Sequence record: OL656110.1
Direction: 5' to 3' (one strand)
Source: Escherichia phage vB_EcoM-RPN242
Length of the DNA: 64,000 nt
Part shown: piece after piece, positions 9,657 through 59,916 of the stretch
How positions within the stretch are numbered: the stretch's first letter is position 1
Layout: each line of letters begins with the position of its first letter
Position numbers and translations under genes: made by a program
Notes under the pieces: model-generated
Seen by the model: the letters and a program-made list of their open reading frames with translations, nothing else
Told to the model about the DNA's origin: nothing
Database searches by the model: none

Positions 9657-9680
9657 GATTGTTTCCTTCTGAACGATTTT

Positions 9681-9690: not shown

Positions 9691-9701
9691 TGAGGCTGAA
9701 T

Positions 9702-10370: not shown

Positions 10371-10377
10371 TCGCTCC

Positions 10378-10683: not shown

Positions 10684-10695
10684 GATACATTCCTC

Positions 10696-10866
10696 TTACT
10701 GGTCGTCGCCGAAAGGACCCATGTCTTGGCTCAGGGAGTTCAAGACATATTCAGTACCCTGCTGGACCAGTTCTTGGGCGCGAGCGGACAGCTCCATTTC
10801 GCATTCAGCAGCAGCGGCATCAGTATCACCAGCGATGATTGCTTTTACCAGATCGATAGCGGCCAT
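10696..10866 (-). CDS. small acidic prohead core protein (gp67/68-position)
   Basis: 56 aa from ATG 10866 (MAAIDLVKAIIAGDTD...); track start is a GTG overlapping the portal gene. Confidence 0.4.
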   Translation of the reverse strand: MAAIDLVKAIIAGDTDAAAAECEMELSARAQELVQQGTEYVLNSLSQDMGPFGDDQ

Positions 10867-10903
10867 GTTCATATCCTCTAAATGTTTTCTATACTTAGTC
10901 GAA

Positions 10904-12598: not shown

Positions 12599-12663
12599 GA
12601 TTAAGTCCTCAACATTTTCTTGTAATTAGTGAGGGGGAATAAGATCCCCCAGCACTGAGGACA

Positions 12664-13197: not shown

Positions 13198-13217
13198 TAT
13201 AGATTCTCCAGAAAGAG

Positions 13218-40137: not shown

Positions 40138-41899
40138 AACGCACCTCCGGCTCCACAGTTACAGCACCGATGCGGAGCACCTGATTCTGTGTGGCCTGAA
40201 TGTTCTGGTCAAGACCGTCTGGAGACACAATTATTGTCACACCCTCAGTGTTGTAGTTGGATACTATGATACGCTGGAGTTCAACAACGCCAGTCACATA
40301 ATCAACCGTCCCAACAGCTTGTACCAGATATTCCTTGGTCGTGTCTGTTGTACTCACCTTGTACATATTCAGGACACCACTGACGTCGCGTATGTAGTAA
40401 GTGAATTCGACCTCGGCCGGAAGCGGCTTAAACCCACTGATACGCACAGAACCAGACGCAATCGAGCGCCCAAACTCGAATGTGAAGCTGTCCAGTACCC
40501 CATAGTCTGGCTTGAAATGGCGCTTATACTTCACAGAAGTGATGTTTGACACTATCGATCTGTCTATGTCGGTGATGGCCGACTGTAACTGCTCTTTATC
40601 GAACAGTTCGTCGAATCCTTCTAGGTTCCCCAAGCCCCAGTTGACAACACCGTTCTTCACGACTGTCTTCAACTGCTCTTCGGTATAGGACGTGGAAGTC
40701 GGATCCCAGAACACGCGGGTGGTGACATCAACATAAGTCAGTTCAGCGTCGACAATCTTGGGTGTGATCGTGCCCACATTGTACTTGTCTAACGTCGCCA
40801 CGATATCTGCCTTCTCAGCGTCCGAGAGCGCCTCACCAACAGAAGGTATCACAGCAATGTAAACGTATCCGGAGTCGGGCGGAGAGAGCGTGTCGCCGCC
40901 ATATGCTTTGGCGCGGGAGACGTTGGAGAACAGACGCTCGGTCAACATAGCATAATCGACTTCGGCTACCGCCGCACCCTCAGCCTGATAAGCCAGCGGA
41001 GCAAGGCGCTTGATGTCCTCAATGCTCTCTGGGTCCGCACCGCCGGAAGAACGTTCTGACACCAGCTCAACATCTACAAGGTTGAATCCCCCGATGGAAG
41101 ACGCGGAGGACAAGGCAGTGATGTCATTGCCGTCTGCACCAGCTGTCTCCAGATACTGGAGGTACACGACGTTCCCGTCTTCTACTCGCTTACAGATATA
41201 CCCATCACCGAATTCGAACGTGTACATCCCGTCCAACCCCAGCTCAACGAAGTAGAGTTGCGCATACTGGCTCAAATCGAACGGGCTGACATATCGTGAA
41301 AAGGTAGACAGCACGTCAGATGTCTCAGATTCCTGCACCTGCACCACCATATGGTCGATGTCCACGGAAGAAGATGGGATCACATAGGTGGAGATCGCGC
41401 TACCTTCCACATCATAGGACTTGTACAGCCAGTTACCCTGTATGAGTTTGATGTTCTCGAACTTGTAAGAGCCGTCTACAAGAGAGGCGCTCACAGGTTG
41501 GTCAACCGTGAAGTTATAGGATTTGCCATCCTTCACCCCAATGAACATCGCGCGGCGATCCATTACAATCGTGTCTGGAGCCGTGCTGGCGTCATATGGA
41601 GTGACTGTGACGTTTGCGTACAGGTACGCGGCCTGGTAGTTGTGAGGGGTGTAAGATAAGAACCCCGCCGCCAGACCGACATTAGAACGCTGTTGAGCAG
41701 AGTGAAGATGGCTTTCGCCATTCAGCATGTTCTGCATGAACCCGATAGAGTTGGCATCCGAGGCCAAGATACGCACGATTGCACTGAGACCAGAACCTTC
41801 AAAGTCATAATCCTTGAAAGTTGGATCAGCTTTCATGCGCTTCTTGATAAGATACTCGAAAGCCCTGACATCGAGTGAAGGGACTGTTTGCGTGGCCAT
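40121..41899 (-). CDS. baseplate wedge protein (gp6-like)
   Basis: About 592 aa from ATG 41899 (track start 41950 is TTG); first gene of the late module. Confidence 0.55.
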   Translation of the reverse strand: MATQTVPSLDVRAFEYLIKKRMKADPTFKDYDFEGSGLSAIVRILASDANSIGFMQNMLNGESHLHSAQQRSNVGLAAGFLSYTPHNYQAAYLYANVTVTPYDASTAPDTIVMDRRAMFIGVKDGKSYNFTVDQPVSASLVDGSYKFENIKLIQGNWLYKSYDVEGSAISTYVIPSSSVDIDHMVVQVQESETSDVLSTFSRYVSPFDLSQYAQLYFVELGLDGMYTFEFGDGYICKRVEDGNVVYLQYLETAGADGNDITALSSASSIGGFNLVDVELVSERSSGGADPESIEDIKRLAPLAYQAEGAAVAEVDYAMLTERLFSNVSRAKAYGGDTLSPPDSGYVYIAVIPSVGEALSDAEKADIVATLDKYNVGTITPKIVDAELTYVDVTTRVFWDPTSTSYTEEQLKTVVKNGVVNWGLGNLEGFDELFDKEQLQSAITDIDRSIVSNITSVKYKRHFKPDYGVLDSFTFEFGRSIASGSVRISGFKPLPAEVEFTYYIRDVSGVLNMYKVSTTDTTKEYLVQAVGTVDYVTGVVELQRIIVSNYNTEGVTIIVSPDGLDQNIQATQNQVLRIGAVTVEPEVRYVQRS

Positions 41900-44864: not shown

Positions 44865-44941
44865 GGTCCTGTAGCTCAGTGGTAAGTAGCAGTGAACTCA
44901 TAATTCATTGGTCGTTGGTTCAAATCCAACCAGGATCACCA
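44865..44941 (+). tRNA. tRNA with CAU anticodon (Met or Ile2)
   Basis: Hand-folded cloverleaf: acceptor GGTCCTG/CAGGATC, anticodon loop CTCATAA, T-arm GTTGG-TTCAAAT-CCAAC, encoded CCA. Confidence 0.75.
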
Positions 44942-45193: not shown

Positions 45194-45282
45194 GGAAGGT
45201 TGCCCGAGATGTTTAAGGGACTCGACTGCTAATCGAGTGGGGCTTTTAGCCCCCGAAGGTTCGAATCCTTCACCTTCCGCCA
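45194..45282 (+). tRNA. tRNA-Ser (GCU) with long variable arm
   Basis: Acceptor GGAAGGT/ACCTTCC, anticodon stem CTCGA/TCGAG with loop CTGCTAA, variable arm GGGGCTTTTAGCCCC, T-arm GAAGG-TTCGAAT-CCTTC, CCA. Confidence 0.75.
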
Positions 45283-45651: not shown

Positions 45652-46320
45652 ATGCGTAATGTTTCTATCTGGGAATTGAACGAAGTGATTTCCCATGACA
45701 CCCCTCCAATTGTCAGACTCTTCCGATACAAGGGTGTCAAGCGTACTCTGAATGAGTTCCTGTCGCCTGTTTACGTCTACCGTGATGGCGGGTTCTTCCG
45801 CCGCGATAAAAACATCCCGAACCTTGGTATGACGTTTGATTTGAGTATCAAAGGCCAGGTTGTATTGATGGGTTATGATAGCCTGGAACAATCTGAGAAA
45901 GGCCAGGGCGCTCCACTTATGGTCTTCGGTTCGTTTGAACAAGCCGTGCACTGGCTGATCAGAAACGGATATGATTTCTATGGCGAAGAAAGCGCCAATT
46001 GGCGTCGTCGCAAGGTCAAGTCTGTTGATTTCTACGCAGAGCGCAAGAAATACCTGGATATCGCTCATCAGTATGAGCAGTCTAAGAAATCCGTTCTAAT
46101 CAAACCATGCGTTACGGTCGGTGAAGAAGTGGGTGTCGTGGATAATTCCGATTTGAATCAGGCAATTAAATCTTTGAATCCAACTCCTCCGGTCAGTCGT
46201 GTTCTGAATGATCAGGGTGCTCCGGCCAAGCATGACAGTTCTATTCCGGTCCCCCAATCGGAGAAACCAGCGGAGCACAAATCGTTCTTCCGTCGCTTGC
46301 TGGACTTCCTGACCAAGTAA
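45652..46320 (+). CDS. hypothetical protein, 222 aa
   Basis: ATG with GAGGA upstream. Confidence 0.55.
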   Translation: MRNVSIWELNEVISHDTPPIVRLFRYKGVKRTLNEFLSPVYVYRDGGFFRRDKNIPNLGMTFDLSIKGQVVLMGYDSLEQSEKGQGAPLMVFGSFEQAVHWLIRNGYDFYGEESANWRRRKVKSVDFYAERKKYLDIAHQYEQSKKSVLIKPCVTVGEEVGVVDNSDLNQAIKSLNPTPPVSRVLNDQGAPAKHDSSIPVPQSEKPAEHKSFFRRLLDFLTK

Positions 46321-46389
46321 GACGAGATTCTCCTTTTCTATACTCCTGTAGATACGCTATGATAAGCCAATGTCTACAGGAGAAATAGA

Positions 46390-47664
46390 ATGAACAAATT
46401 CGCTGCACAACCCCTCGCTCCATATATCCCGTTCCGCACGTATATCCCGTTCCACACGTTAGGGAAAGGTCCATATAAAACGATTTTTGATGTCCTCTCT
46501 CTTCATCGTGAACATATTCACTGGGAAGACTACCTCTACAAACACACTCCGTGTGAACTCGTCGCCAACCCCGAAACTAACCAGCAGGTCTGGTTCAAGC
46601 GTGAAGATTACTTCGCGCCGCTATCTTGTTATATGAATGGCAAGCAGGGCATCAATGGCAGTAAGTTGCGCCAGGCCATCTGGTTGATGGTTGAGCACCT
46701 GAAGACCGGAGGCTCCCCTGACATCATCCATGGTACTGTCGTTGGTAGTCCGCAGTCCCCTATGGCGACGGCAGTCTCTCGGCACTTCGGCGGCAAGACA
46801 ACCACTGTACTCGGAGCGACCAAACCCACCACCTGTATGAACCACGACATGGTGGCAATGTCAGCCTGGTTTGGTAGTGAGTTCAACTTCGTCGGCTCGG
46901 GTTACAACAGCACGATCCAGCCGCGCTGTAAGAAGTTGATCGAACAACAGAATCCAAAGGCGTATTATCTGGAATATGGTATCACCCTCGACCACACAGC
47001 GCATTCTCCTGAGCGCATCGCTGGCTTCCATATGCTGGGTGGCGAGCAGGTTGCCAACATCCCTGACCATATTACCGATCTGATTATCCCAGCCGGATCC
47101 TGCAACTCTTGCACAAGCATCCTGACCGGGCTGGCAATGCATCCGAAGCCTAATCTGAAGCGTGTGTATCTGATTGGCATCGGTCCTAACCGCCTTGACT
47201 TTATCGAGAGCCGTCTGCGCATCATCGGCAAACATGCCAATCTGCCGCACATTGTCGACTTCACCCGTCGCTATCACGACAACCCAGACTATGTACACGG
47301 CAAGAAGGAGCTTCAGCATGCCTCTAAGAGCGTTTCGCTGGCTGGCCTCCTAAGTGGTATCAGGCAGAAGGAAGAGCCAGAGGTCGTGCTTCCTCGCTTT
47401 GAGGTACACCATTGGGATCTTCATACCACTAATTGGGTTCGTTACAATGATCTGATGGAATATCAGTGGGGTGATATTGAGTTGCATCCTCGCTATGAAG
47501 GCAAGGTCATGACCTGGGTTCAACAACACAAGCCCGAGTTGCTCAACGAGAACACCCTGTTCTGGATTGTGGGTAGCAAGCCATACATCGAGCCGATGAA
47601 GGCAGCATGCCCTGAGCTGGCTATCCCTGAAACAGTTCCTGTAAACGACTTCACCCCTTCCTGA
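46390..47664 (+). CDS. putative PLP-dependent enzyme (fold-type II, ACC-deaminase/D-cysteine-desulfhydrase-like)
   Basis: 424 aa; GINGSKLRQ resembles the GGNKxRK PLP-lysine loop and GSPQSP the Gly-rich phosphate loop; AGGAG upstream. Confidence 0.45.
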   Translation: MNKFAAQPLAPYIPFRTYIPFHTLGKGPYKTIFDVLSLHREHIHWEDYLYKHTPCELVANPETNQQVWFKREDYFAPLSCYMNGKQGINGSKLRQAIWLMVEHLKTGGSPDIIHGTVVGSPQSPMATAVSRHFGGKTTTVLGATKPTTCMNHDMVAMSAWFGSEFNFVGSGYNSTIQPRCKKLIEQQNPKAYYLEYGITLDHTAHSPERIAGFHMLGGEQVANIPDHITDLIIPAGSCNSCTSILTGLAMHPKPNLKRVYLIGIGPNRLDFIESRLRIIGKHANLPHIVDFTRRYHDNPDYVHGKKELQHASKSVSLAGLLSGIRQKEEPEVVLPRFEVHHWDLHTTNWVRYNDLMEYQWGDIELHPRYEGKVMTWVQQHKPELLNENTLFWIVGSKPYIEPMKAACPELAIPETVPVNDFTPS

Positions 47665-47670
47665 TCCATC

Positions 47671-47681
47671 CTAAATACCCC
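47671..47681 (+). promoter_or_regulatory. late promoter CTAAATACCCC with inverted repeat, plus strand
   Basis: CTAAATACCCCATGCAAACCAGTGTGGGGTATTT-ATG. Confidence 0.6.
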
Positions 47682-47704
47682 ATGCAAACCAGTGTGGGGT
47701 ATTT

Positions 47705-48169
47705 ATGAAAACCTTTCTTGAATATCTTAAAGAGGCGTCTGAGGCTGAACCCAAGTTCGATAACATGCGCCTCTTTCACGGCTCCAACGTAGGATTCGAT
47801 GTCTTCGACTTTGAGCGCTTCGGTCAGACTGACTGTGGTACGATGGGACCTGGGTTCTATCTGACAGGCAACGAAGAAGAGGCACAGCGCTATGCAGAGA
47901 ACGCCGTCCGCTACCGCCAGAGTGGTGAACCCCATGTTCTGGTGTTTAACGTCAGTGTTAAGAAGCCCCTCGAACTCGACTCTAACAATGTCTCGGCCTG
48001 GGAAGACGCTATGCGTGAACTTGGTATCGAACCGGGTAAGATCCATGAGAACGCCGCCGAGCTAATTGCTCAGGGCTATGACTCCACCATCGTGCTGGAC
48101 CGCTTTGGGTTGCCTATGGTGCGTGAGATCGTCCTGTACAAACCAGGCCTGGCAGTGCGGGAAGCCTAA
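47705..48169 (+). CDS. late-expressed hypothetical protein, 154 aa, with an HGS motif
   Basis: RLFHGSN...GFYLTGN suggests a nucleotide-modifying fold but is unverified; driven by a late promoter. Confidence 0.55.
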   Translation: MKTFLEYLKEASEAEPKFDNMRLFHGSNVGFDVFDFERFGQTDCGTMGPGFYLTGNEEEAQRYAENAVRYRQSGEPHVLVFNVSVKKPLELDSNNVSAWEDAMRELGIEPGKIHENAAELIAQGYDSTIVLDRFGLPMVREIVLYKPGLAVREA

Positions 48170-48177
48170 ATACCCCC
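48166..48177 (+). promoter_or_regulatory. late promoter CTAAATACCCCC
   Basis: The TAA stop of the upstream gene is embedded in the motif; GAGGAA then ATG at 48206. Confidence 0.55.
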
Positions 48178-48205
48178 ATATGGCTAACCCACTGAGGAAC
48201 CTAAC

Positions 48206-48664
48206 ATGCCAACCTCCAAATTGTTTGAATCAGAATACACCAATGACATCCCTGTATGGACTGGTGTTCAAGACGGTATCACGATTGAGCTGTTTGATCG
48301 TGAAGAGACAGGCGCGGAAGAGATCTATGCAGGCGTTGAAGGCACTGATGTTGTCCGCGCCGCCGTAGCACTTGCCACCTTCCTGGAAGATGCACCGATT
48401 GATGGTGTGCCGTTCGAGGCGCACGTAGATCCTCAGGATCCGACCTCTATCATCATTACAGTGAATGGGGTGCCATACACTTCATACAGCATCGAGACGG
48501 ACGAAGAAGGCAGTGGAGCGCTGTATATTGCCACCGACCTGCAGCTGGAAGACGATGAGATGGATTATCTGATTCAGAACGGGGTGCTGCCACCGTTTAC
48601 CGATGAAGAACTGGACACGGAACTGGCCGCCGTCGGGGACGACGAAGACTTCTGGGAAGAATAA
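48206..48664 (+). CDS. highly acidic late protein, 152 aa
   Basis: Asp/Glu-rich throughout (EEGSGALYIATDLQLEDDEMDYL...DEELDTELAAVGDDEDFWEE). Confidence 0.55.
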   Translation: MPTSKLFESEYTNDIPVWTGVQDGITIELFDREETGAEEIYAGVEGTDVVRAAVALATFLEDAPIDGVPFEAHVDPQDPTSIIITVNGVPYTSYSIETDEEGSGALYIATDLQLEDDEMDYLIQNGVLPPFTDEELDTELAAVGDDEDFWEE

Positions 48665-48666
48665 GA

Positions 48667-48695
48667 AAAGGGGCTTAACGCCCCTTTCTTTATTT
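48667..48695. terminator. bidirectional terminator GGGGCTTAACGCCCC
   Basis: Between convergent gene ends 48664 (plus) and 48690 (minus); T-run on plus, A-run upstream. Confidence 0.65.
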
Positions 48696-49241
48696 CACCT
48701 TGCGAGTTGGATATTGGTTAAAGAGTTTGCCTAGCTTAGACACGTTGATGATCGTTTGGGTCTTCCAGCGCTGGATCCCTTCCGGGGTAGTCACGGTCAG
48801 GATTGAATGCCCCCAAATGTGGGAACCGTCCAGCACAGCCGCGCTGTGGCTACCAATCTTATCTTCCAGTTTGCAAATGAAAGATTCATACTGATGGGCA
48901 GCGTTGCAACGGGCTTCCTTGATGAACAGACGCTGGCGCTCTGGATCGGCCTTGACGATGTTCGGTGCACCCACTTGATAAGAACGGTTTGGCGGGTTAT
49001 TGTCGGTAGTCAGGCTCATATACAAAGACTGCTTTGCCTTCATGCGATGGTAATCGTGGTGACCCATTCTGATGCCAACAGTTGATGGCCAAGGAGCGCA
49101 CTTCTGAAGATCCCAGCCGTTGGTGGCTAGATCGTCCATCACGTTCTTGATGATTTTGTTCGCGTACTGCTCGGCAGCTTCTTCGGCTTGCGACAACAGA
49201 GGCTCAACAGCGATACGGACAGCAGTTTTTGGTATTGTCAT
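48690..49241 (-). CDS. hypothetical protein, about 183 aa
   Basis: ATG at 49241 with GAAGGG upstream; track start 49295 over-extended. Confidence 0.5.
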   Translation of the reverse strand: MTIPKTAVRIAVEPLLSQAEEAAEQYANKIIKNVMDDLATNGWDLQKCAPWPSTVGIRMGHHDYHRMKAKQSLYMSLTTDNNPPNRSYQVGAPNIVKADPERQRLFIKEARCNAAHQYESFICKLEDKIGSHSAAVLDGSHIWGHSILTVTTPEGIQRWKTQTIINVSKLGKLFNQYPTRKVK

Positions 49242-49287
49242 GATATAGCCCTTCAGTTCAAAGTAAGCCCCCGGAGGGGCTTTGTAA

Positions 49288-49596
49288 TTAGACAAAGATG
49301 AATTTAGAATCTTTGAATGTCAAGCGGGAGCAAACTTCTTCAACCGCGTCAACCACCATAAAATCGTTGAATGCTTTGTGTAGGGCTTTCAGGAAGGAAG
49401 CCGGAACCAGCCCACACGCTGGGTTGTCAAACAAAGCCGAAGAGACGACAGAGTTGAAAGTTGAGTCTGGAGTACAAGACTGGGCAATCATAAGCGCTTC
49501 TGCGTTTCTCACTGCGTGGAACTTAAAGGTAGCAACAACGGTTTCTTTGTTAGATTTAGCCAGTTGTGCTTCAAATTGTTCTTTTGTGATTGCCAT
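49288..49596 (-). CDS. hypothetical protein, about 102 aa
   Basis: ATG at 49596 with GAGAAGGAAA upstream. Confidence 0.45.
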   Translation of the reverse strand: MAITKEQFEAQLAKSNKETVVATFKFHAVRNAEALMIAQSCTPDSTFNSVVSSALFDNPACGLVPASFLKALHKAFNDFMVVDAVEEVCSRLTFKDSKFIFV

Positions 49597-49691
49597 GATG
49601 TATTTCCTTCTCTTCAGATTGTTGTTTGTTCGTACTACAATTAGAAGTATACGCCAGTTATTGAAGAAGTAAACTTTATTCAATAAATATT

Positions 49692-49904
49692 TTAATAAAT
49701 TTTGAACTCCGCTCCTTTATACACCGCCGACCCTCGTTCTATGAGACCGTCTGGGACAATCACCTTTGTCGGCCAACCACCATCGGGAGCCTTAACAGTC
49801 AGGCGCGTCTTATGATCGCCCAGCTGTGTTTGTTCATAGATCCTTCCGCGTACTATCGTCGCCCCGCCCTGGGTGACGAGCAATCTCTTGTTTACCACAT
49901 TCAT
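49692..49904 (-). CDS. hypothetical protein, 70 aa
   Basis: ATG start but weak ribosome-binding site. Confidence 0.35.
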   Translation of the reverse strand: MNVVNKRLLVTQGGATIVRGRIYEQTQLGDHKTRLTVKAPDGGWPTKVIVPDGLIERGSAVYKGAEFKIY

Positions 49905-49946
49905 TCCCTAAACACCAAAAGAAAGGGGAGTTTCCTCCCCTTGAAC

Positions 49947-50519
49947 TTATTTCTTCAGATCAGGCCACGCACCAGAGGTCGCAGTAGACCCAGCTGGGGG
50001 AGCAGACTCAAGATCGGGAGAACCCGACTGAGTAACAACAGTGGGATCTTTCTGTACGACCCGAACCCCAAATTGCTTGAGAGCATCCATAGCTTGGGCT
50101 TTTCGCCTGTTGCTTTTGTAGTGGTTGTAGCCTTTGATACCGAATGATGCACTAATTGCTGTCAATAACGAATAGGTATACCATTCAGGTGCGGTATCTA
50201 GTGCCTGAAGGCCACCGATTACTGCTTTGATGAAATCCCCTTTATGATACTCACCAGGGAACAGAATCAGTTCCACAACCGGAGCAGTCATGACGAGGAT
50301 GGCGGGTATGGCCAACACGATAGTCCAGAATTCGTCTTTCCAAGACCCGCCGACTTCGGTAATCTTAGACAGCTCCCAATCTGAGGAGGACTTGATGGCC
50401 TCCAGCTTGACGTCGTGTTTGGCCTGTACAACTTCCCGCTTATATTGGATCAAATCAGTCCCGAGGTTCCAGAGTTGCTTGAGCGCCCCTGGGATCATAC
50501 CAACGAGGGGGATTGCCAT
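49947..50519 (-). CDS. membrane protein, possibly holin-like
   Basis: About 190 aa from ATG 50519 (AAGGAG upstream); two to three hydrophobic segments and a charged C-terminus. Confidence 0.5.
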   Translation of the reverse strand: MAIPLVGMIPGALKQLWNLGTDLIQYKREVVQAKHDVKLEAIKSSSDWELSKITEVGGSWKDEFWTIVLAIPAILVMTAPVVELILFPGEYHKGDFIKAVIGGLQALDTAPEWYTYSLLTAISASFGIKGYNHYKSNRRKAQAMDALKQFGVRVVQKDPTVVTQSGSPDLESAPPAGSTATSGAWPDLKK

Positions 50520-50598
50520 AATAAACTCCTTGGTCAATGAATGGCTCTATGGTTAAATATGCCCACGTGCTAACGGCACGGATAACCTGGAGAATTAC

Positions 50599-52016
50599 AT
50601 GACCGTCTTCTATACGAACGTTGCCCGCCGGGGCAATGACCTGTTGATTCGAATCGCAGATGACATGGGTAATCGCCGTCTGTTGAAAAAGAAATTCGAA
50701 CCCACTCTCTATTTACCCACGGCTGATTATTCAAATGTTGAAAAGGTCGGCCTGCTCAACGAACCCCTGGTCTCCAAGAAGTTCCCTGACATGCGCACTG
50801 CTGACAACTACCTTGAAGAGTACAAGGAAGTCCAGGGTGCAGCCATTTACGGGCAGACCGATTATGCATACCAGTTCATCGCCCATAGCTTTCCTGGAAA
50901 GATTGAGCCGGATTACTCCAACATCCATATTGCTAACCTCGATATCGAAGTGTTCTCCGCCGGGTGGAAAGATGGAAAGATGACCAAAGGTCCATTCCCT
51001 CACCCAACCATTGAGCAGCAGACGTTCAAAGGGAATGAGGCGCGCATTCGCCGCTTCCATCAGCAGGTACTGGCCAACCATGACTTCATCCGTGAGCACT
51101 TTCCCAGTTCCTTTATCAGCAACAACGTCACTGATCAGTTCCCTATCATTGACAGCAACGGTAAGATCACCCAAGACATGAATGCGGCGTTCCCCATTAC
51201 CCTGATCCAGCTTCAGGACATGGCGACCAATAAGTTCATGGTGTGGGGTATGCCGTGCGCGAAGGATCGTGCGAAGTTCAGATACGATCCAGAAGACGCG
51301 GAGATCGGTGGACTTGAGGTGGAGTACAAGGAGTTTGTCACCGAGCAGGATCTGCTGCGATCTTTCCTTGACTTCTGGTCACAGCGTCAGTTCGACGGCT
51401 GGACAGGCTGGAACATTGAGACGTTTGATAGCCCTTATCTTGTTGAGCGCATGAATCAGGTTCTGGGTGAGGCTGAAACGTCGCGCCTCAGTCCTTGGGG
51501 TATCATTAAGAAGCGTATCATTCGCGATAAGAAGGGCGATATCACGACGTATCAGTTCGTGGGTTGCCCTATGCTCGATTATATGCAGATCTACAAGAAA
51601 CACACGTACACCACCCGTGAACGCTACTCTCTTGACTGGATTGCGTATTGTGAGCTGGGTGAGAAGAAGATGGACTACAGTGAGAGCAAGTCGCTCTTTG
51701 ATCTGTACTTCAACGACTACTGCAAACACACCCGATATGGTATCAAAGACGTTAAGCTGGTATGGCGACTTGAACAGAAGCTGCGCCTGCTCCAGCTGAT
51801 GTTCGTCCTGGCCTACCGCACCAAGTCCAACTATGAGGACGGCCTGGGTACTGTGGCTCCGTGGCTGGCCATGTGCTATTATCGCCTGTATGAGAAGGGG
51901 ATAGTGCCTAAGATCCAGCGTGTATACGATGGTCCGACCGACTTTGAGGGTGCATACGTCATGGATGTGACACCAGGAATCTACTTCTGGGTCTTCTCTG
52001 AGGACTTGAACTCCCT
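50599..52016 (+). CDS. DNA polymerase, family B, exon 1 (N-terminal and exonuclease region up to motif A)
   Basis: N-terminus MTVFYTNVARRGNDLLIRI... resembles T4 gp43; frame ends at ...SEDLNSL, the first half of motif A. Confidence 0.85.
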
Positions 52017-53199
52017 TAAGTTAGCAGCATAGGGGCTTTGGTTGGCGACAACCATCGAATAACTCTCTTAATTGCTGGGAAGTCTCTTTAGAGATAATCA
52101 GCAGCCAAGGTCGGCCACGAAGACCTAAATACTCTGTAACCACGGTGAAGGAGTAAGGTCATGAAGGAAATCAAGAGTCTGTTCTATCGAAATGATTTGG
52201 TAATTGAAGAATCTAAGATAGAAGAATATTTGAAGTTCTGTAAGGAACACAGTTATGATGGTGATGGATACAGTGAACGCCATCATATACTGCCTCAGGC
52301 GCATTATCCTGAGTTCTCTAAAGAAGAATGGAACATTGTAAACCTGTTATATAAAGATCATGTAGAGGCTCATCGCCTGTTGCATGAAGCATTACCAGAA
52401 GATAAATCAGCGTTCTTCGCCTACTTCATGATGAAATCCCATAACGGGGAACTAAGTGAGGAATTGAGAAGAAAGAATGTTGAAATGCTGACGGGAGAGG
52501 GAAATCCTTCGAAGAGGGAAGATGTCAGAAGAAAGATATCCAAATCTAAGAAGGGTGTTAGAAGAGCAGATATGAAGGGTAAGGCTTATTTCGGCGCTGA
52601 TAAAGAAACAGCTGAAAGAATTAAAGCCAATTCCAGTCTTGTTCACAAAGGCACTGTCCCCGTAAGACTCCTGGATGGTAGTGTTATCAAAGTTTCAACG
52701 CAAGACCCGAGATATTTGAGTGGTGAGTTGAAATGTATAATAGGTGCAAAGAAAGGTCAGGTGGGACCAAACACCGACCCAAAAGCGAAGAAGAAATTTA
52801 AAGATTCTTTAGAGAAAAGGAAGGAAATGTTTGCCAGAATGAGTGGGGAAGAAATAACCACTCATTGCTTGACACAACAGGATTTAGGTAAGAAGACTGT
52901 AGAGTGGGGCAAGTTGGCAAGAAACTTCAAACGACTCTTTGGTTACGCTGGGTTAAACCCAGATGATTTCCTTGAAGTAGTGGGTGACAAGGTTCAACGA
53001 CTATCGAAAGCAAGACCGACGACTAAGCGTCTGATCTGAAGCGAGTAGAGTAGGGGCAAGCGCCTCGAAATGGAGAGAATCTCTAGACAGTTCTGGAGAT
53101 TGTGATATAGTCTGGCCTGTATGGTGACATACAGCAGTGTTCGGTAAACTGAATGACGAACACGGGGGATGAAATAGCGAGCATCCCTGAACATAAGCG
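52017..53199 (+). mobile_element. group I intron carrying an HNH homing endonuclease gene
   Basis: R-like element GTTCAACGACTA at 52992-53003 and S-like GATATAGTC at 53104-53112; 5' exon ends in U, intron ends in G; splicing gives DLNSL|YPHIIQQYNLGPETI. Confidence 0.7.
52161..53039 (+). CDS. HNH homing endonuclease (intron-encoded)
   Basis: ERHHILPQ...NIVNLLYKDHVEAHRLLHE is an HNH motif; GGAG upstream; 3' end overlaps the intron core. Confidence 0.8.
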   Translation: MKEIKSLFYRNDLVIEESKIEEYLKFCKEHSYDGDGYSERHHILPQAHYPEFSKEEWNIVNLLYKDHVEAHRLLHEALPEDKSAFFAYFMMKSHNGELSEELRRKNVEMLTGEGNPSKREDVRRKISKSKKGVRRADMKGKAYFGADKETAERIKANSSLVHKGTVPVRLLDGSVIKVSTQDPRYLSGELKCIIGAKKGQVGPNTDPKAKKKFKDSLEKRKEMFARMSGEEITTHCLTQQDLGKKTVEWGKLARNFKRLFGYAGLNPDDFLEVVGDKVQRLSKARPTTKRLI

Positions 53200-54781
53200 A
53201 TATCCACACATCATTCAGCAATACAACCTCGGTCCAGAGACTATCGTTGGCGACAAACACCAGCGCCGCGAGATTATTGAGGCTATGTGTGAAGAGCTGG
53301 CTGCTCAGATGAATAACATGGCAACGCCGATGCACAAACGTCGGTTGATGAAAGCCCTTCACGACAAGCTGTTGCGTGCGGTTGACGAACGCCTGCAGGT
53401 TGTTGATGAGTTGGTTGCCCTGGGTGAGTTCCACTTTGAAACCCTGCGCCGCTACAACGTGTCGTTCACGCCGAACGTTCAATTCTTCAGCAACGAGAAG
53501 ATGTCGTTCCTGTCTGAAATCATGCGTGGTATCTACAGCGACCGTAAAGTAGAGAAGGCCAAGGGTCTGAAGTATGAGCAGTGGGCTGGCTGGTGTAAAG
53601 AGATGTCGAAGGGCGACTTCCATCTTGAGTCTGCCATGAAGTCTCGCTACTATGACCCAGAGTGGTATGAAGAGCACAAGAACATTGATCTTGATGCCCT
53701 GACCGAAGTGATGAAGAAGTGGGAAGACCTGGGCGTCGCTCAAGATACCCTACAGCAAGGTCTGAAGATCTTGATGAACGCAGGTTATGGCGCTATCTCA
53801 AACGTCTGGTTCAAAGAGTACTTCAACCTCAACATTGCCGAAGCCATCACCACATCCGGTCAGCTGATCAACAAGTGGAACAAGCGTTACACTGATGACT
53901 ATCTGAACAAGCTGTGTGGTACAACAGGCCAGGACTTCGTCATCGCAGGGGATACCGACTCCAACTACATCTGTATTGAGCGTCTTGTCAAGCAGTTGTG
54001 GCCTGATGTTACTGACCATCATGCTATGGTTGATAATATCGACCAATGGATCAAAGACAACTACCAGCCGAAGACCAATGAGTGGGCACAGCTTCTGTGT
54101 AACACCATGAACGGATTTGAACAGCGCATGGTGTGGGAGCGTGAGGTCATTGCGTCAGCCGCTGTCTGGCGAGCCAAGAAGATGTATGCCATGGCCGTGT
54201 ACGACAGTGAGGGTATCAAGTATGAGAAGCCGAAGATCAAGTTCAAAGGTCTGGAAGCCCGCAAGTCCACCACGCCGGAATGGTGTCGTGAGCGCCTTGT
54301 CAAGTGCTATGAGAAGATCCTACTCGGCACCGAAGAGGAAGTACAGACGCTCATCTCCCAGTACAAAGAGGAGTATATGAAACTCTCTGTAGACGATATC
54401 GCCAAGGCGTCAGGCGTGTCCGACATAGAGAAGTGTGTGGCTGCTGACGGATCGTTTATATCTGGTGCTCATTTTGCTGCCAAGGCGTGTGTGGGCTACA
54501 ACCGTCTGGTTGAGAAGAACGAAGATCTGGGTCTACCGATGATCGAGTCGGGTGATAAGGTACAGATGGTGTTGTTGAAGCCGGGCAACCCGTTTGGGCA
54601 GAACTACTTTGCATATCCTGAGTTCTTCCCAGAGGAGCTTGGTCTGGGCAAATGGGTGGATTATCAGGCGGCCTTTGAGAAGTCCTTCATTGATCCGATT
54701 CAGTCTATCCTCGACGTGGTCGGCTGGTCACACAAGCGCCGTGTGAACCTTCTTGCCATGATGCAAAAGAAGAAAGGTTGA
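53200..54781 (+). CDS. DNA polymerase, family B, exon 2 (motif A second half, motif C, thumb)
   Basis: Begins ...YPHIIQQYNLGPETI; contains VIAGDTDSNYI (motif C). The track's ATG at 53153 lies inside the intron. Confidence 0.85.
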
Positions 54782-54843
54782 TTCAATAAACCAAAGGGGG
54801 ATATAATTCCCCCTGTTAACCCTTTGACAAACAGGTGATTGAA

Positions 54844-55185
54844 ATGAAACTCAATAAGATTCTTCTGGTGTGCGCTCTGGCTTTCTCTACCACTGCGTGT
54901 TCCACCCTTCTGGACGTTGCGTCTACTGTAGACCTTGACGCGCCGACGTTCACCAATGAGCAGGCCGTGTCCAAGATGGAAGACACCATCAAGGCGCATG
55001 CAGCACTGGACAACACTACCCCAGGTCCGCTCCAAACTGTCTGCAACTATGACGATTCCATCCAGGAAGACGAAACTTACCACTGCATCACCTACGTGAA
55101 GCAGGCCTCCGTCGTTCTGTATGCAGATTGTACCGAAGAACAGTGTGTTGCTACAGGCTACGATAAAGTTGAGGAAGACAAATGA
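54844..55185 (+). CDS. putative lipoprotein, about 113 aa
   Basis: MKLNKILLVCALAFSTTAC signal peptide with lipobox-like TTAC; AGGTGA upstream; track start is a GTG at 54835. Confidence 0.5.
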   Translation: MKLNKILLVCALAFSTTACSTLLDVASTVDLDAPTFTNEQAVSKMEDTIKAHAALDNTTPGPLQTVCNYDDSIQEDETYHCITYVKQASVVLYADCTEEQCVATGYDKVEEDK

Positions 55186-55961
55186 ACAACCTGGTTTGTA
55201 TCTATGATATGAAATCAAAGGTCGGTGGCCTGTATCGCGTCCTCGTGGATGTTGACCTGACGTTGGTCGACAGCCTCTCCCCTTGGGTGCAGTGGTTTAA
55301 CGAAGAGAACATCGCCGCCGCTGCTACCGCTACGGGGGAACATAAGTCATACCAGTTCCAGCCGATTACCAAAGAGTGTTATATGTCCCATGCTGGCGAC
55401 CTGGCTATTCTGATGCGTGAACGTGCGCATCCGGCGTGGCTATACCATGAAGTCCAATTGGGGATGCACAAACAACGTGTGCCAAGCGGTAACGATCCTA
55501 TGGACTGGTGGCGTCGCCCTGACTTGTACGCCAAGATGAACCCACTTCCTGGTGCTTACGAGTTCCTGGTAAATCTGAAGAAGATTCTGCTCGAAGACTT
55601 TGACAATGTTGAATTCATCGCAGTGTCCAAGTGTGAGCCGGAACACGAGCGCAGCAAGCGCCAGTTTGTCTACGACAAGTTCCCTGGTATCTTCAACGGG
55701 TTTGTCAGCACCGACGAAAAGCATCTGCTGGCTGGCGATGTCCTGATTGATGACAATCCGAAGTATGTCGAGCCATGCGGTCTGAACAACATCTTCGTCA
55801 TCTTTGTTCCTCAGGGTAATTATGAAAAACTGGATCTTTCGAATTCGGAAGACATGCTTTATATTAAACCAGTAGAAGGCCAGAACCACTTCGACTTCCT
55901 GAACCACAATATTGTCGAAGTGGTTAACCGCCTGATTAGTCATTATCAATACGTCCGATAG
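55182..55961 (+). CDS. HAD-superfamily hydrolase-like protein (possible nucleotidase)
   Basis: LVDVDLTLVDS resembles HAD motif I (DxDxT/V); ATGA overlap with the upstream stop. Confidence 0.45.
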   Translation: MNNLVCIYDMKSKVGGLYRVLVDVDLTLVDSLSPWVQWFNEENIAAAATATGEHKSYQFQPITKECYMSHAGDLAILMRERAHPAWLYHEVQLGMHKQRVPSGNDPMDWWRRPDLYAKMNPLPGAYEFLVNLKKILLEDFDNVEFIAVSKCEPEHERSKRQFVYDKFPGIFNGFVSTDEKHLLAGDVLIDDNPKYVEPCGLNNIFVIFVPQGNYEKLDLSNSEDMLYIKPVEGQNHFDFLNHNIVEVVNRLISHYQYVR

Positions 55962-55970
55962 GAGGACATC

Positions 55971-56276
55971 GTGCAAGAACAATCCAAGTTTGGGGAAACC
56001 CCAGACAAGCGTTCCGGTGATAGCGACATGGATAGCGTGATTAACCATGTGAACAACTTCATTCGCCAGCAGGAGACTCCAACTCCTATCGGTGCAGCCA
56101 AGGCTCTTCATGATGTACTGGTGAAGATCGGCCAGCGCTCTGAAGCGGATGAAATCTTCTATAACTTCGACGACCAGTATAAAGTTAAGTTTGAAGAGAA
56201 TGGCTGCCCACAGGTTGCTGTGTTCTGGGCACCTTGGCTGGGCGGCGTGAGCTGGCGTATTGAGGATGCTGTGTAA
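55971..56276 (+). CDS. hypothetical protein, 101 aa
   Basis: GTG start with strong AGGAGG 6 nt upstream. Confidence 0.5.
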   Translation: MQEQSKFGETPDKRSGDSDMDSVINHVNNFIRQQETPTPIGAAKALHDVLVKIGQRSEADEIFYNFDDQYKVKFEENGCPQVAVFWAPWLGGVSWRIEDAV

Positions 56277-56962
56277 TGCTGTCGCTTTACCTGATCACGA
56301 ATCTCGTCAATCATAAATTCTATATCGGTGTCACCTCAGAACCGGATAGGCGGTTGGCTGAGCATAAGTGTGGTCAGGGGAGCATTGCATTACAACGAGC
56401 GTTCAAGAAATACGGTGAAGACCAGTTCAAGTTTGAAGTTCTGTTCCGAGGGAAAGATTCGGTTATCCTTCAGATAGAGTCTGAACTGGTCTGCCAGGAG
56501 ATCCTTGACTCTGGGTGGTGCTACAACATGGTCGTCGGGGGTGGGAAGCCTCCATTGGCCACGCCTAATTCATCCGCAAAGAGTGCTGCAACCCGCAAAC
56601 GTTTGATCGCTGAGGGTAAGATCAAGCCACCTCCCCGCATATCGGCTGAGTCACAAAGAAAGGGTGGTGAAACCAGAAGGAAACTGATTTCCGAGGGAGT
56701 GATAAAGAAGCCATTACCTCCACCTTCAAAAGCCCAGAGGCGAGCAGGTGAGACAAGGAAACAGTTGCATGCTCTTGGCCTGATAGACATTGGTCCTGGC
56801 CGCGATGAAACGATTTACAAATGGCAGCACAAAGATGGTCGCATTGTTGAGTTAAGAAGATGCGATATGGAACTTCAATATGGCCTCCCTTCTGGTAATA
56901 TAACGAATCTCTTGAAAGGTAGGGCTAAAACATGTCTCGGTTGGAGAATAATGAATGGCTAA
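56276..56962 (+). CDS. GIY-YIG homing endonuclease with C-terminal NUMOD-like repeats
   Basis: LYLITNLVNHKFYIGVT...RRLAEH; three repeats of TRK.L...G.I; paralogous to 13218..13931. Confidence 0.8.
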   Translation: MLSLYLITNLVNHKFYIGVTSEPDRRLAEHKCGQGSIALQRAFKKYGEDQFKFEVLFRGKDSVILQIESELVCQEILDSGWCYNMVVGGGKPPLATPNSSAKSAATRKRLIAEGKIKPPPRISAESQRKGGETRRKLISEGVIKKPLPPPSKAQRRAGETRKQLHALGLIDIGPGRDETIYKWQHKDGRIVELRRCDMELQYGLPSGNITNLLKGRAKTCLGWRIMNG

Positions 56963-57860
56963 AATAATTGTAGTGAAGGGAACAAGTGGCGTGGGTAAGG
57001 GTACGAGAGTGGTCCAGTTCATCGAATGGCTGCGCACTAAGCTGGAGCCTACCGAACTGACCTACACCGTTGGTGACAAGACTCGCCCGTTTGGCTTGAA
57101 GTTCGGAGAGCTGAAGTTAATCTTCGTTGGACAGTACACCGTGTCTAACAAATCCGGCCTGGCTTCCTGGACTTCAATGGATGCAATCCATGCTGCTACA
57201 GGCTCAGGCGATATTGCTCGTGATCTAATCAAGTGCTGGTTGGTTCAGGGATACACTCTGGTGTGCGAGGGAGAACCTCTCATGCTATCGGACAAATGGC
57301 GTCCTGAATGGATGTTCAAGAACTATCCGATTGAATCATTGGCGCTGCTGTACTTTGCGTACCCCGACCGCTATCAGTACGATGCTCGTATCCGTGGTCG
57401 CTCTGGTAAAGAAGCAGGGAACTCCGGCTGGTCGCGCAACGAATCTTACTACAAGGAGTTTGAGAAGTCGAAGGCCGAAATGTTGGCACTGGGGTGGAAC
57501 GTTTTGGCAGACGTGTACAGTGGGCAGGATGTTGAGTATACAAAACCTTCTCAGAATGAGTGGGAAATGGATCCACGTAGCGAACTGGCAGTCATGCCGT
57601 TTGATGCCCCTCTTTGGGTTGTCGGGGATGCTATCGCTTATCAGATGGATATCGGCGCGGTTAACCTTGACATCAAAGATTTTTATGCCTACTGTGAAAC
57701 CAATCCAATGACCCGTGAGGTCGGCGGTGATGATCCTTTGGCGCACAGAGTGCCTGAGAAGCCGCAGAAGGCATCCAAAACTAAAACCAAGGCGAGCGCC
57801 CAGCCAGAAGCAACGAAGGCAGCGTCGCGCTCTCTCCTTGACCTGATGAAGAAGGGGTGA
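56955..57860 (+). CDS. P-loop kinase, candidate 5-hydroxymethyl-dU DNA kinase
   Basis: KGTSGVGKGT P-loop (NMP-kinase-like GxxGxGKGT); 301 aa without a HAD motif, so not a T4 Pnk-type kinase/phosphatase. Confidence 0.5.
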   Translation: MAKIIVVKGTSGVGKGTRVVQFIEWLRTKLEPTELTYTVGDKTRPFGLKFGELKLIFVGQYTVSNKSGLASWTSMDAIHAATGSGDIARDLIKCWLVQGYTLVCEGEPLMLSDKWRPEWMFKNYPIESLALLYFAYPDRYQYDARIRGRSGKEAGNSGWSRNESYYKEFEKSKAEMLALGWNVLADVYSGQDVEYTKPSQNEWEMDPRSELAVMPFDAPLWVVGDAIAYQMDIGAVNLDIKDFYAYCETNPMTREVGGDDPLAHRVPEKPQKASKTKTKASAQPEATKAASRSLLDLMKKG

Positions 57861-57862
57861 TC

Positions 57863-58060
57863 ATGAAACGGTTGTCTAATTATCTGTTGTTCATTGGTCT
57901 GGTTATGGCAGCCGTTTCAATGTGTACTGCCCTAGCCTATCATTTCACCCCTCTGGACTTAACAACCTCAGAGAAGTTGAACGTGACTGTGATGTACTGT
58001 ATTGGCGCGGTGATGTCTATCGGCGCTGCTGGTTACAAAATATTCAAGGAACCAAAATGA
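57863..58060 (+). CDS. small two-helix membrane protein, 65 aa
   Basis: ATG at 57863 with AAGGGGTG upstream; two hydrophobic segments. Confidence 0.45.
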   Translation: MKRLSNYLLFIGLVMAAVSMCTALAYHFTPLDLTTSEKLNVTVMYCIGAVMSIGAAGYKIFKEPK

Positions 58061-58434
58061 AAATTCAAATCCCTCGCGATGCTGTGGCTGTTGCGATCGA
58101 CTACACCGGAAACGCCAAGCACATTACTGCCGTGCGCCTGATTCCTGAAAAGAACTGCGTCATCCCTCAGTTCCAGCTGAATGCCAATCCGTCGTCCAAA
58201 GACTTCGGAAAGTGGTTGCAGGCTGCTCCGTTCCGTACCCAGACGAACGCTCAGATGTTCATCTCGGGTAAGACCCACACTGCAGCCCGTCTGTGGTTCG
58301 TGACCGCTGACCGTCGCTTTGTCGATATGTGGGAACGTCCGATGGGGTTCGTGAAGCCGGAAGATATTCAGCTGGCTCCTGAGCCTGAAGCTGTGGCTCC
58401 TGAAGAGGAAGCGAAAGATGCATCATTTATCTAA
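58057..58434 (+). CDS. hypothetical protein, about 125 aa
   Basis: ATGA overlap with the upstream stop; track ORF 57922..58434 is over-extended. Confidence 0.45.
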   Translation: MKIQIPRDAVAVAIDYTGNAKHITAVRLIPEKNCVIPQFQLNANPSSKDFGKWLQAAPFRTQTNAQMFISGKTHTAARLWFVTADRRFVDMWERPMGFVKPEDIQLAPEPEAVAPEEEAKDASFI

Positions 58435-59644
58435 AATGCCGACGGGCTATACGCCTCCGGCTGAATGGAAGTACCCGATTGACCTGGCTGTTGATTATCG
58501 CAAGCCTGAGAATCGCATGTACTTGCTCAAGGCTTGGGTGGAGGCGCTGTCCTACACAGAAGAGCACAACCAGCAGATGCGTCTGATGGACTATGCGATC
58601 GAAGTCACTGAAGGCATCAGCCTCGAACAGAAAGTCGAGCGCAAGATCTGGATGGCATTCCTGTGGGGTTGTTGCTATAACGCCGTCGGGCCGTGGACGA
58701 TCTACAGTGAGTTCCCTGTGCCGCCTCAGTCTAAGGAAGAGATGCAGCGCTTCTCTGATTGGTATAATCTGAACTTTGAACGCATGCGATTCGATACCGA
58801 CTGTCGCTACCGCAAGTCCAAGATGATCCCGTGTGTTCAGTCCTATATTGACTGGCTGGCTGGCCGTACTCAATATGACGCTTTCCGTGGGATGTTGGTG
58901 TGCATCGATAAGACAGAACAATTCACCCAGCTGTGGGACACGGCGATGTCCTGGAAATACTTCGGTCGCCTGAGCGCCTGGAACTTCCTGGAAGCCCTGA
59001 ACATGGTATTCGGAAACGAATACACCATTGACGTCCCTGGCTTCATGCTGCGTGATCGTGATGGAAGCGAGTCCAACCGTAATGGCGCGGCGTTCTTGTC
59101 CAACCGTGACGATTGGGTGACTAAACACGGGAAGAAAAAGATCAACGGTTGTCCTATCACGGATGAAGAGTGTGACATCCTTGAGGCTGACCTTGAGCAG
59201 GCGTTCCAGGATTGTGTGGCTGAGTTCGGGCACCTGACGTTCATCAACCGTCTGAACTTTGAAACCTCCGGTGCTTGTTGGCTGAAGAAATTCTTCCGAC
59301 TGAAGAATACCCGTTACATCGGGTGGGACGCAGAGCGTACCTGGGATGAGATAGACTACATGGAACGCGTCTGGCCTGAATACTCCTGCGCAGCGCTCTG
59401 GGAAGCCCGTTCGCTCTGGCTGCCAGATACCCTGTTGTGCGAAAAGGCTCCTGCAGGGCACGTTCCAGGCGTCCAGAAGTGGAAGATGCCTGTGTTCTTT
59501 GAGACTGGTGTTCCTCTGCACATCTGGCATCTGCAAAAGGGTACGCGTTGGGAGCCTGACCAGGTGTATCGAGAATTGGGTAAACCGAAGATTGATAAAC
59601 CGAAGTCCAACAGCGTCAACCTCATGGCACTCTTGAAACGCTGA
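58418..59644 (+). CDS. hypothetical 408-aa protein, candidate base-modifying transferase by context
   Basis: GAGGAAG upstream; no motif recognised by eye; assignment rests on neighbourhood with the kinase only. Confidence 0.5.
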   Translation: MHHLSKMPTGYTPPAEWKYPIDLAVDYRKPENRMYLLKAWVEALSYTEEHNQQMRLMDYAIEVTEGISLEQKVERKIWMAFLWGCCYNAVGPWTIYSEFPVPPQSKEEMQRFSDWYNLNFERMRFDTDCRYRKSKMIPCVQSYIDWLAGRTQYDAFRGMLVCIDKTEQFTQLWDTAMSWKYFGRLSAWNFLEALNMVFGNEYTIDVPGFMLRDRDGSESNRNGAAFLSNRDDWVTKHGKKKINGCPITDEECDILEADLEQAFQDCVAEFGHLTFINRLNFETSGACWLKKFFRLKNTRYIGWDAERTWDEIDYMERVWPEYSCAALWEARSLWLPDTLLCEKAPAGHVPGVQKWKMPVFFETGVPLHIWHLQKGTRWEPDQVYRELGKPKIDKPKSNSVNLMALLKR

Positions 59645-59848: not shown

Positions 59849-59875
59849 TCTGATTGCGATTGCGTTCTTCAATAA

Positions 59876-59916
59876 AGGGGAATGGGTTAATATTAGCCCG
59901 TTCCCCTTTCTTTTTG
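59876..59916 (+). terminator. rho-independent terminator
   Basis: AGGGGAATGGG...CCCGTTCCCCT followed by TTCTTTTTG; preceded by the TTCTTCAATAAA motif. Confidence 0.7.

Follow-up and report, generated by a model that had tools for sequence, protein, structure and literature searches.

Candidate thymidine hypermodification genes beside the DNA polymerase of an Aglimvirinae phage, and C-terminal tails that their products share with the polymerase

Within the 64,000-nucleotide stretch of Escherichia phage vB_EcoM-RPN242 that we analysed (record OL656110.1; the window), four genes between 46390 and 59644 lie close to or beside the gene for DNA polymerase: a pyridoxal phosphate (PLP)-dependent decarboxylase, a HAD phosphatase, a predicted 5-hydroxymethyl-2'-deoxyuridine (5-hmdU) DNA kinase and an amino acid:DNA transferase. 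We consider it very probable that they form the polymerase-adjacent part of the Ackermannviridae pathway to 5-(2-aminoethoxy)methyl-2'-deoxyuridine (5-NeOmdU). A reading made from the DNA letters alone (the sequence-only reading) had proposed the four open reading frames as a thymidine hypermodification set, and all of them are present on the plus strand at the positions given below. A nucleotide search with the 14-kb region matched 284 phage records, so the four are genuine conserved genes and not chance open reading frames. The closest match was Escherichia phage A221 (97.6% identity; Ackermannviridae, subfamily Aglimvirinae), followed by other Ag3-like and Limestone-like phages, and Ag3 is 93% identical to the window at the DNA level. 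The window is DNA of an Aglimvirinae phage.

The window is collinear with Salmonella phage ViI (NC_015296; a Kuttervirus) from about 94.3 kb to 157 kb of that genome. Both phages have the PLP gene first, then polymerase, HAD, kinase, two small genes and transferase; the encoded proteins are 76-91% identical and share the same catalytic Lys, Cys, Glu and P-loop residues. The pathway proteins of ViI are gp243 and gp67 (5-hmdU DNA kinases, 5-HMUDK), gp247 (aGPT-Pplase2), gp226 (PLP decarboxylase) and gp160 (aGPT-Pplase1). ViI belongs to a different subfamily, Cvivirinae, and its nucleoside chemistry is known, whereas the Aglimvirinae lineage of the window is described at the level of genes only.

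Enzymes encoded near the polymerase

The kinase gene (56955..57860, +) encodes a protein of HMUD2 type and the orthologue of ViI gp243 (82% identity by BLASTP). Residues 1-300 align with positions 1-298 of the 298-position PF18747 (HMUD2) profile at 500.4 bits (cut-off 25; E 2e-150), and the Walker A sequence GTSGVGKGT is intact (residues 9-17, 56979-57005). In a Pfam scan the protein matched no phosphatase domain, as expected from its earlier description as a P-loop kinase lacking one, and no canonical GMP, dNMP or thymidylate kinase family; a dNMP or thymidylate kinase identity would have spoken against a role in hypermodification. The profile search suggested by the sequence-only reading thus assigns the protein to the 5-HMUDK family. 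Purified ViI gp243 and gp67 phosphorylate 5-hmdU in DNA (Lee et al. 2021 NAR, PMC8989533), and by orthology to gp243 the window protein would be an ATP-dependent kinase of 5-hmdU in DNA. In the marine ViI-like contig L041 two HMUD2 kinase paralogues stand in tandem (8531-9988), both with an xLW tail.

The 408-aa product of 58418..59644 (+), formerly described as a protein of unknown fold, is an amino acid:DNA transferase (AADT) of aGPT-Pplase clade 2, orthologous to the serine:DNA transferase gp247 of ViI (88% identity by BLASTP). It matches PF18724 (ADDT), the family expected if the proposal was right, at 203.7 bits (cut-off 26.2; E 4.4e-60). Its motif ETSGACW contains Glu282 (59261-59263) and Cys287 (59276-59278); E282, T283, C287 and W288 are invariant across 49 homologues, and the first three are kept in Pseudomonas phage M6 gp51 too (aligned motif ETV-LCKW). 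A Cys and a Glu are essential by mutation in both ViI gp247 and M6 gp51 (PMC8989533). Purified gp247 moves L-serine through its hydroxyl onto 5-phosphomethyl-2'-deoxyuridine (5-PmdU) in the same study, and the 88% identity points to serine, O-linked, as the likely substrate of the window transferase.

An AlphaFold2 model of the transferase built with the 49 homologues (pLDDT 92.5, pTM 0.89) is all-helical; residues 391-401 have pLDDT below 50, a disordered linker, and a short helix follows at 402-407. Foldseek against the Protein Data Bank (PDB) returned as its best match 8z2n (probability 0.99, target-normalised TM score 0.65), the structure of PUGT, a base-flipping 5-PmdU glycinyltransferase of phage PaMx11. 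The probabilities of the other PDB matches were all <=0.06. The modelled fold is PUGT-like, with 8z2n the sole credible match among solved structures. Single-sequence phmmer searches of PDB sequences with the transferase, kinase and PLP enzyme gave no match, and a three-sequence transferase profile missed PUGT; the link to PUGT therefore came solely through the AlphaFold2 model and Foldseek.

The PLP gene (46390..47664, +) encodes an orthologue of ViI gp226 (91% identity by BLASTP), predicted to convert 5-O-serinylthymidine to 5-NeOmdU. Its Schiff-base residue Lys92 (motif INGSKLR, 46663-46665) is conserved in 4 of 4 aligned PLP enzymes, facing Lys92 of the ViI protein and Lys36 of M6 gp52, both of them lysines named in PMC8989533. 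When a four-sequence profile was searched against the PDB, the 1-aminocyclopropane-1-carboxylate (ACC) deaminase 1f2d matched at E 1.4e-7 with its Lys51 opposite Lys92, which points to a fold-type-II enzyme, as previously supposed. The ACC deaminases 1f2d, 1j0e and 1rqx matched at the same level (about E 1e-7), and a D-cysteine desulfhydrase matched at E 9e-4. Purified ViI gp226, a PLP enzyme (Lys92), decarboxylates 5-O-serinylthymidine to 5-NeOmdU (PMC8989533), and the 91% identity suggests the same reaction on DNA for the window enzyme.

The HAD gene (55182..55961, +) encodes a phosphatase resembling NT5C-type 5'(3')-deoxyribonucleotidases, 76% identical to ViI Vi01_194 (BLASTP). Its assignment as a HAD-like hydrolase was confirmed by a match to Pfam NT5C (PF06941) at 35.1 bits (cut-off 24.8) and by HAD motifs I-IV: D23-x-D25-x-T27, K180 and D190-D191 are invariant in six homologues down to 26% identity, and motif I, DVDLT, lies at 55248-55262. 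The gene adjoins those for kinase and ADDT in seven lineages, namely the window, ViI, Vibrio phage D531, a group of three marine contigs (L027-29), L037, L039 and L041; among the lineages examined it is not their neighbour in L040 alone. In L039 it stays beside them although the polymerase gene is not adjacent. The homologous genes lie at 13533-14165 of L005 (the D531 locus), 8568-9248 of L027, 12694-13251 of L037, 7312-7902 of L039 and 7839-8528 of L041. This conserved neighbourhood suggests that the HAD protein is functionally linked to the hypermodification system.

The same enzyme families and chemistry operate in the Pseudomonas phages M6 and PaMx11, where 5-hmdU phosphorylation (gp54, 5-HMUDK), Cys-dependent amino-acid transfer (gp51/gp46, the glycine:DNA transferase, PUGT 8z2n) and PLP-dependent decarboxylation (gp52) follow one another. 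The Glu-x4-Cys motif and the PLP lysine of these proteins align with those of the window enzymes. In contrast to the window system, identity is only 21-23%, glycine is used instead of serine, and an extra radical-SAM or FAD step is present. Their transferases, of about 290 aa, have no counterpart to the final ~75 residues of the window transferase, tail included, and their polymerase is of family A, whereas that of the window is of family B. Databases still carry misleading legacy names for some of these proteins: homologues of gp243 are called 'guanylate kinase', gp67 bears the name 'terminase small subunit' and M6 gp52 is labelled 'threonine dehydratase'.

C-terminal peptides shared with the polymerase

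Polymerase (RRVNLLAMMQKKKG, 54737-54778), kinase (SRSLLDLMKKG, 57825-57857) and transferase (SNSVNLMALLKR, 59606-59641) end in a common peptide, [SN]L[LM]x[LM][LM][KQ][KR]. Four of the five ViI tails served to write this eight-residue expression, which leaves the fifth as the only independent ViI match. All of its matches, three in the window and five in the ViI proteome (~48,000 residues), are C-terminal and none is internal; in ViI they fall on the polymerase, gp243, gp247, gp160 and a 70-aa Cys-rich protein. Across 26 related loci the tail is kept and the linker before it varies freely.

In enteric Ackermannviridae the tails are of the type xNL[LM]x[LM][LM]KK, and the polymerase (NLLAMMQKK) is concordant with the enzymes (SLLDLMKK, NLMALLKR). 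The polymerase, kinase 2, transferase, aGPT-Pplase1 and Cys-rich homologue of D531 all end in [KR][KR]LW, a motif that does not occur inside proteins across the 185 genes of this phage, and its gp33 homologue ends in KTRKLF. An xLW ending is common to the polymerase, both kinases, transferase and aGPT-Pplase1 of L041 and is found in 0 of 12 neighbouring genes. The tails of L037 are of T4 type (polymerase SLEDFFS, transferase SLFDF, kinase EFFDIFH). Polymerase and enzyme tails thus change type together in four divergent lineages (enteric, D531, L041 and L037). Among the lineages compared, the PLP decarboxylase, HAD protein, kinase 1 and pre-replicative enzymes never carry a C-terminal tail, and the most distant AADT homologues and M6 gp51 are entirely without one.

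The Cys-rich protein (70-99 aa, phrog_4789, CxCGG...PC...CxxC) has its gene 0-2.2 kb away from that for DNA ligase and carries a lineage-specific tail in ViI (Vi01_049c, L003 30355-30567), D531 (L034 5591-5890) and A221 (L043 13295-13507). Tails of the form [KT]KRL[LI] occur in two more window proteins, a 140-aa homologue of ViI Vi01_144c (3609-4031, -; ending MGKPKTKRLL) and the intron-encoded HNH endonuclease (ARPTTKRLI, 53010-53036); they resemble the Vibrio-type [KR][KR]LW and the gp33 tails (ViI KSKKLI, A221 KSKKLV). N-terminal look-alikes in gp67 (MSYSLKGLLKR), SSB (MGNLFDRLKQ) and UvsX (MADSLMARMLK) are recorded without any claim, that of UvsX being probably a conserved recombinase N-terminus. 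Caulobacter phage Cr30, a distant ADDT-like match, was dropped because its tails were uninformative, the polymerase lying outside the examined region.

L037 (Logan ERR12510853) encodes at 8616-13251 a Tet_JBP dioxygenase, an ADDT 65-67% identical to the window transferase, P-loop kinase 3 and NT5C beside a split family B polymerase, and carries T4-like replication genes. Judged by its genes, it looks like a system in which 5-hmdU would arise by oxidation of T in DNA, not through a dUMP hydroxymethylase.

Gene organisation and mobile elements

Polymerase, DUF7292, HAD, DUF7254, GIY-YIG, kinase, two small genes and transferase follow one another in a packed, partly overlapping plus-strand block, closed by a strong terminator-like hairpin with a 16-bp stem and a T run (59874..59909, +). 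The PLP gene stands apart from this block, in a unit farther upstream (45652-48664) with a bidirectional terminator-like hairpin at its end. The clustering with the polymerase noted in the sequence-only reading therefore stands, with HAD, kinase and transferase in the polymerase block and the PLP gene upstream. Just 5' of the PLP unit are tRNA-Met (CAT; 44865-44941) and tRNA-Ser (GCT; 45194-45282). The gene 3' of the decarboxylase (47705-48169; ViI homologue Vi01_183) matches ART-PolyVal, the ADP-ribosyltransferase domain of polyvalent proteins, above the Pfam cut-off (E 4.9e-10). Both small genes between kinase and transferase are conserved in ViI: 57863-58060 (+) encodes a hydrophobic, probably membrane-located protein of 65 aa (gp244 homologue; BLASTP 32% identity, E 3e-10) and 58057-58434 (+) one of 125 aa (gp245 homologue, phrog_4163; BLASTP 58% identity, E 1e-45).

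The polymerase is of family B and T4 gp43-like. Exon 1 (50599..52016, +; Pfam DNA_pol_B_exo1, E 7e-17) runs collinear with its ViI counterpart as far as 52016, and exon 2 (53200..54781, +) matches Pfam DNA_pol_B. Between them lies an apparent group I intron of 1183 nt (52017..53199, +), inserted in polymerase motif A (DLNSL|YPHII), with a T as the last base of the 5' exon and a G as the last base of the insert. When 52016 is joined to 53200, an open reading frame of 999 aa results in which the ViI sequence FSEDLNSLYPHIIQQ is restored. Rfam reported no intron in the polymerase gene at its gathering threshold; a permissive search gave Intron_gpI at 52874-53134 (31.2 bits, E 9.7e-6), below gathering. 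As the Rfam match is sub-threshold, the putative splicing is argued mainly from the exact restoration of the reading frame. An HNH homing endonuclease gene lies within the intron (52161-53039; phrog_12434, E 1e-159).

Unlike the window, ViI has neither this intron with its HNH endonuclease nor a GIY-YIG gene directly 5' of the kinase. The latter gene encodes a free-standing SegD-like homing endonuclease (56276-56962); it stands after the DUF7254 gene and shares 8 nt with the start of the kinase gene that follows it. D531 has a similar endonuclease at the same position (L005 14517-15200).

Pathway assignment, proposed clamp docking and alternatives

The pathway and its family-wide conservation are already published, and the system is not new. 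In ViI, CBA120, CBA6 and Vibrio phage 1.255.O about 40% of thymidine is replaced by a 301-Da nucleoside, 5-NeOmdU, and lysates containing gp67, gp160, gp226, gp243 and gp247 reconstitute 5-NeOmdU on 5-hmdU DNA (Lee et al. 2018 PNAS, PMC5889632). The same paper counts Ag3 among the 5-HMUDK phages predicted to carry 5-NeOmdU. A 2024 review describes all pathway genes as conserved family-wide (PMC11721090), and a 2026 preprint reports 5-NeOmdU at 16% of thymidine in a Taipeivirus (bioRxiv 10.64898/2026.05.19.726188). With the same product measured in relatives nearer to and farther from ViI, the present lineage is bracketed on both sides. Orthology, together with the protein families, catalytic residues, modelled fold and synteny, points to 5-NeOmdU as the product nucleoside in the present phage.

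As to the ViI-type set of kinase, amino-acid transferase and PLP decarboxylase that had been proposed, all three enzymes are there, at 82-91% identity to proteins active when purified, whereas the set is not complete near the polymerase. By comparison with ViI, the genes for kinase 1 (gp67), aGPT-Pplase1 (gp160) and the dUMP hydroxymethylase lie elsewhere in the genome, outside the window; A221 encodes all three (kinase 1 at 88%, aGPT-Pplase1 at 82% and the ThyA-like dUMP hydroxymethylase at 76% identity to ViI).

The steps that follow are carried over from ViI biochemistry. The dNTP pool would be filled with 5-hmdUTP by three enzymes whose genes lie outside the window, namely a ThyA-like dUMP hydroxymethylase, a dNMP kinase and a dUTPase, and the NT5C-type HAD protein would probably contribute to this pool step as a dTMP/dNMP nucleotidase. 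The phage polymerase (50599-54781, with the presumed intron removed) would put 5-hmdU into DNA, where the 5-hmdU DNA kinase would phosphorylate the hydroxymethyl group of the polymer with ATP. Attack of transferase Cys287 on C6 would release the phosphate and form an exocyclic methylene, to which the side-chain hydroxyl of free L-serine would add, giving 5-O-serinylthymidine. Decarboxylation by the PLP enzyme (Lys92) would then yield 5-NeOmdU. The unmodified remainder of 5-hmdU would become thymine, and only part of the thymidines would be hypermodified.

The HAD protein is probably a pool-clearing dTMPase in the pre-replicative, nucleotide-pool arm of the system, as judged from its family and from the metabolism of related phages. 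The NT5C enzymes characterised so far are mononucleotidases with a preference for dUMP and dTMP. Phages with 5-hydroxymethyluracil (hmU) DNA deplete their thymidine nucleotides with a dTMPase (PMC8989533); since NT5C enzymes are dUMP/dTMP nucleotidases, a dTMPase is the most likely identity. Its earlier placement within the post-replicative enzyme set was not upheld, the protein being absent from the five-lysate reconstitution (PMC5889632).

We favour, with fair though not high confidence, the reading that the tails dock on the sliding clamp and so keep the modification enzymes that act at the DNA level attached to newly replicated DNA. The proposed carriers of this polymerase-type epitope are the 5-hmdU DNA kinase 2, the amino acid:DNA transferase, aGPT-Pplase1 and the small Cys-rich protein. 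Enzymes held on clamps left on nascent DNA would couple hypermodification to the replication fork; the clamp gene lies outside the window, and that of A221 is at 39732-40400 of ON862890. A parallel is offered by eukaryotic DNMT1, which PCNA recruits through a PIP box. The T4 proteins gp43, gp55 and gp33 bind the gp45 clamp through C-terminal epitopes that can be exchanged for one another (Geiduschek & Kassavetis 2010, PMC2988020); gp43 ends SLDFLFG and gp55 carries SLDFLYEAND. Like the window tails, the T4 epitopes are short hydrophobic extreme C-termini behind a variable disordered linker and are common to the polymerase and DNA-tracking proteins, and SLDFLFG can be set beside SLLDLMKKG of the window kinase and SLFDF and SLEDFFS of L037. 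The two differ in that the window carriers are DNA base-modification enzymes, whereas T4's own glucosyltransferases have no such tail, and in that the flanking residues are basic in the window and acidic in T4; clamp binding of the window tails is putative. Neither Lee paper mentions the clamp (PMC5889632, PMC8989533), and a full-text literature search found no clamp-tail proposal, an earlier mention in the Hutinet et al. 2021 EcoSal review being still possible; polymerase-type tails shared by modification enzymes are apparently unreported.

Directly 5' of the PLP gene, a 222-aa protein (45652-46320, phrog_4050) ends in KSFFRRLLDFLTK; this tail is kept in ViI (RRLMDFLTK) and the linker before it diverges. 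Possibly this protein is a further carrier of a docking tail, one that could act for the PLP enzyme, which has none.

Several observations weigh against the pathway assignment. The PALP match of the PLP enzyme (30.4 bits) is below the 35-bit Pfam gathering score, the Foldseek E-value of the transferase-PUGT match is weak (0.31), the HAD protein falls outside the five-protein set that is sufficient in vitro, and the literature gives no settled roles to the paralogues kinase 1 and aGPT-Pplase1 (PMC5889632). Nucleoside analysis or other direct chemistry for an Agtrevirus or Aglimvirinae phage was not found in the literature, which also leaves room for the same enzyme families to make a different product in this lineage, through another nucleophile or another PLP reaction; AADT homologues elsewhere do use other substrates, glycine in M6 and PaMx11 and putrescine in PhiW-14 (PMC8989533). 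Such a divergence is very unlikely at 88% (transferase) and 91% (PLP enzyme) identity to the ViI proteins. The ViI-like phage 1.255.O makes the same 301-Da nucleoside (PMC5889632), and sequenced Vibrio homologues are only ~50% identical (1.255.O itself being outside the comparison); the Taipeivirus product is again 5-NeOmdU. Still more improbable is a set of ordinary metabolic genes, with a guanylate kinase, a threonine dehydratase/ammonia-lyase and a deoxyribonucleotidase acting on free nucleotides and amino acids. RefSeq and PHROG do label the kinase 'guanylate kinase', and a Dickeya phage XF4 entry reads 'putative threonine ammonia lyase', but these names are legacy annotation transfers; the kinase spans the full HMUD2 profile without fitting any family of GMP or dTMP kinases, and the modelled fold of the transferase resembles that of PUGT, a base-flipping DNA enzyme. 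In vitro, the orthologous enzymes of ViI work on DNA (PMC8989533), and this biochemistry effectively refutes free-nucleotide metabolism already.

For the HAD protein one may ask instead whether it acts on the DNA polymer, dephosphorylating 5-PmdU and so limiting modification, or has an unrelated role beside the polymerase. Its dispensability in the reconstitution (PMC5889632), the partial hypermodification and its position next to kinase and ADDT in L039, away from the polymerase, bear on this idea in its favour. We nevertheless regard it as rather unlikely, because the best family of the protein consists of mononucleotidases, a dTMPase is an established part of hmU-phage metabolism (PMC8989533) and the docking tail of the DNA-acting enzymes is missing; a pool-clearing dTMPase is preferred. 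For the tails, other readings are amphipathic anchors to the membrane, as in MinD, or extensions that bind DNA simply through basic residues. Both are less likely than clamp docking, as a helix needs more residues than xLW and KLW tails offer, the same position on T4-family polymerases is an established clamp epitope, and L037 uses the T4-type sequence itself. L027-29 are an exception to the concordance: three enzymes there end in KLW and the polymerase in a VNVFSFIKKK-type tail. Both types may be clamp ligands in these contigs, or they may occupy different binding sites.

The assignments replace the labels 'hypothetical', 'guanylate kinase' and 'threonine ammonia lyase' with correct annotation. 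They predict that an E. coli phage of therapeutic type has restriction-resistant DNA partly substituted with 5-NeOmdU, a property that would matter for cloning and sequencing and for how the phage escapes host defences. If the docking reading of the tails is true, it provides a testable mechanism for targeting post-replicative hypermodification to nascent phage DNA; it would explain why the tail is found on DNA-acting enzymes only, and possibly why modification is partial. A polymerase-like C-terminal tail would then be a simple signature by which new DNA-level modification enzymes could be recognized in phage genomes.

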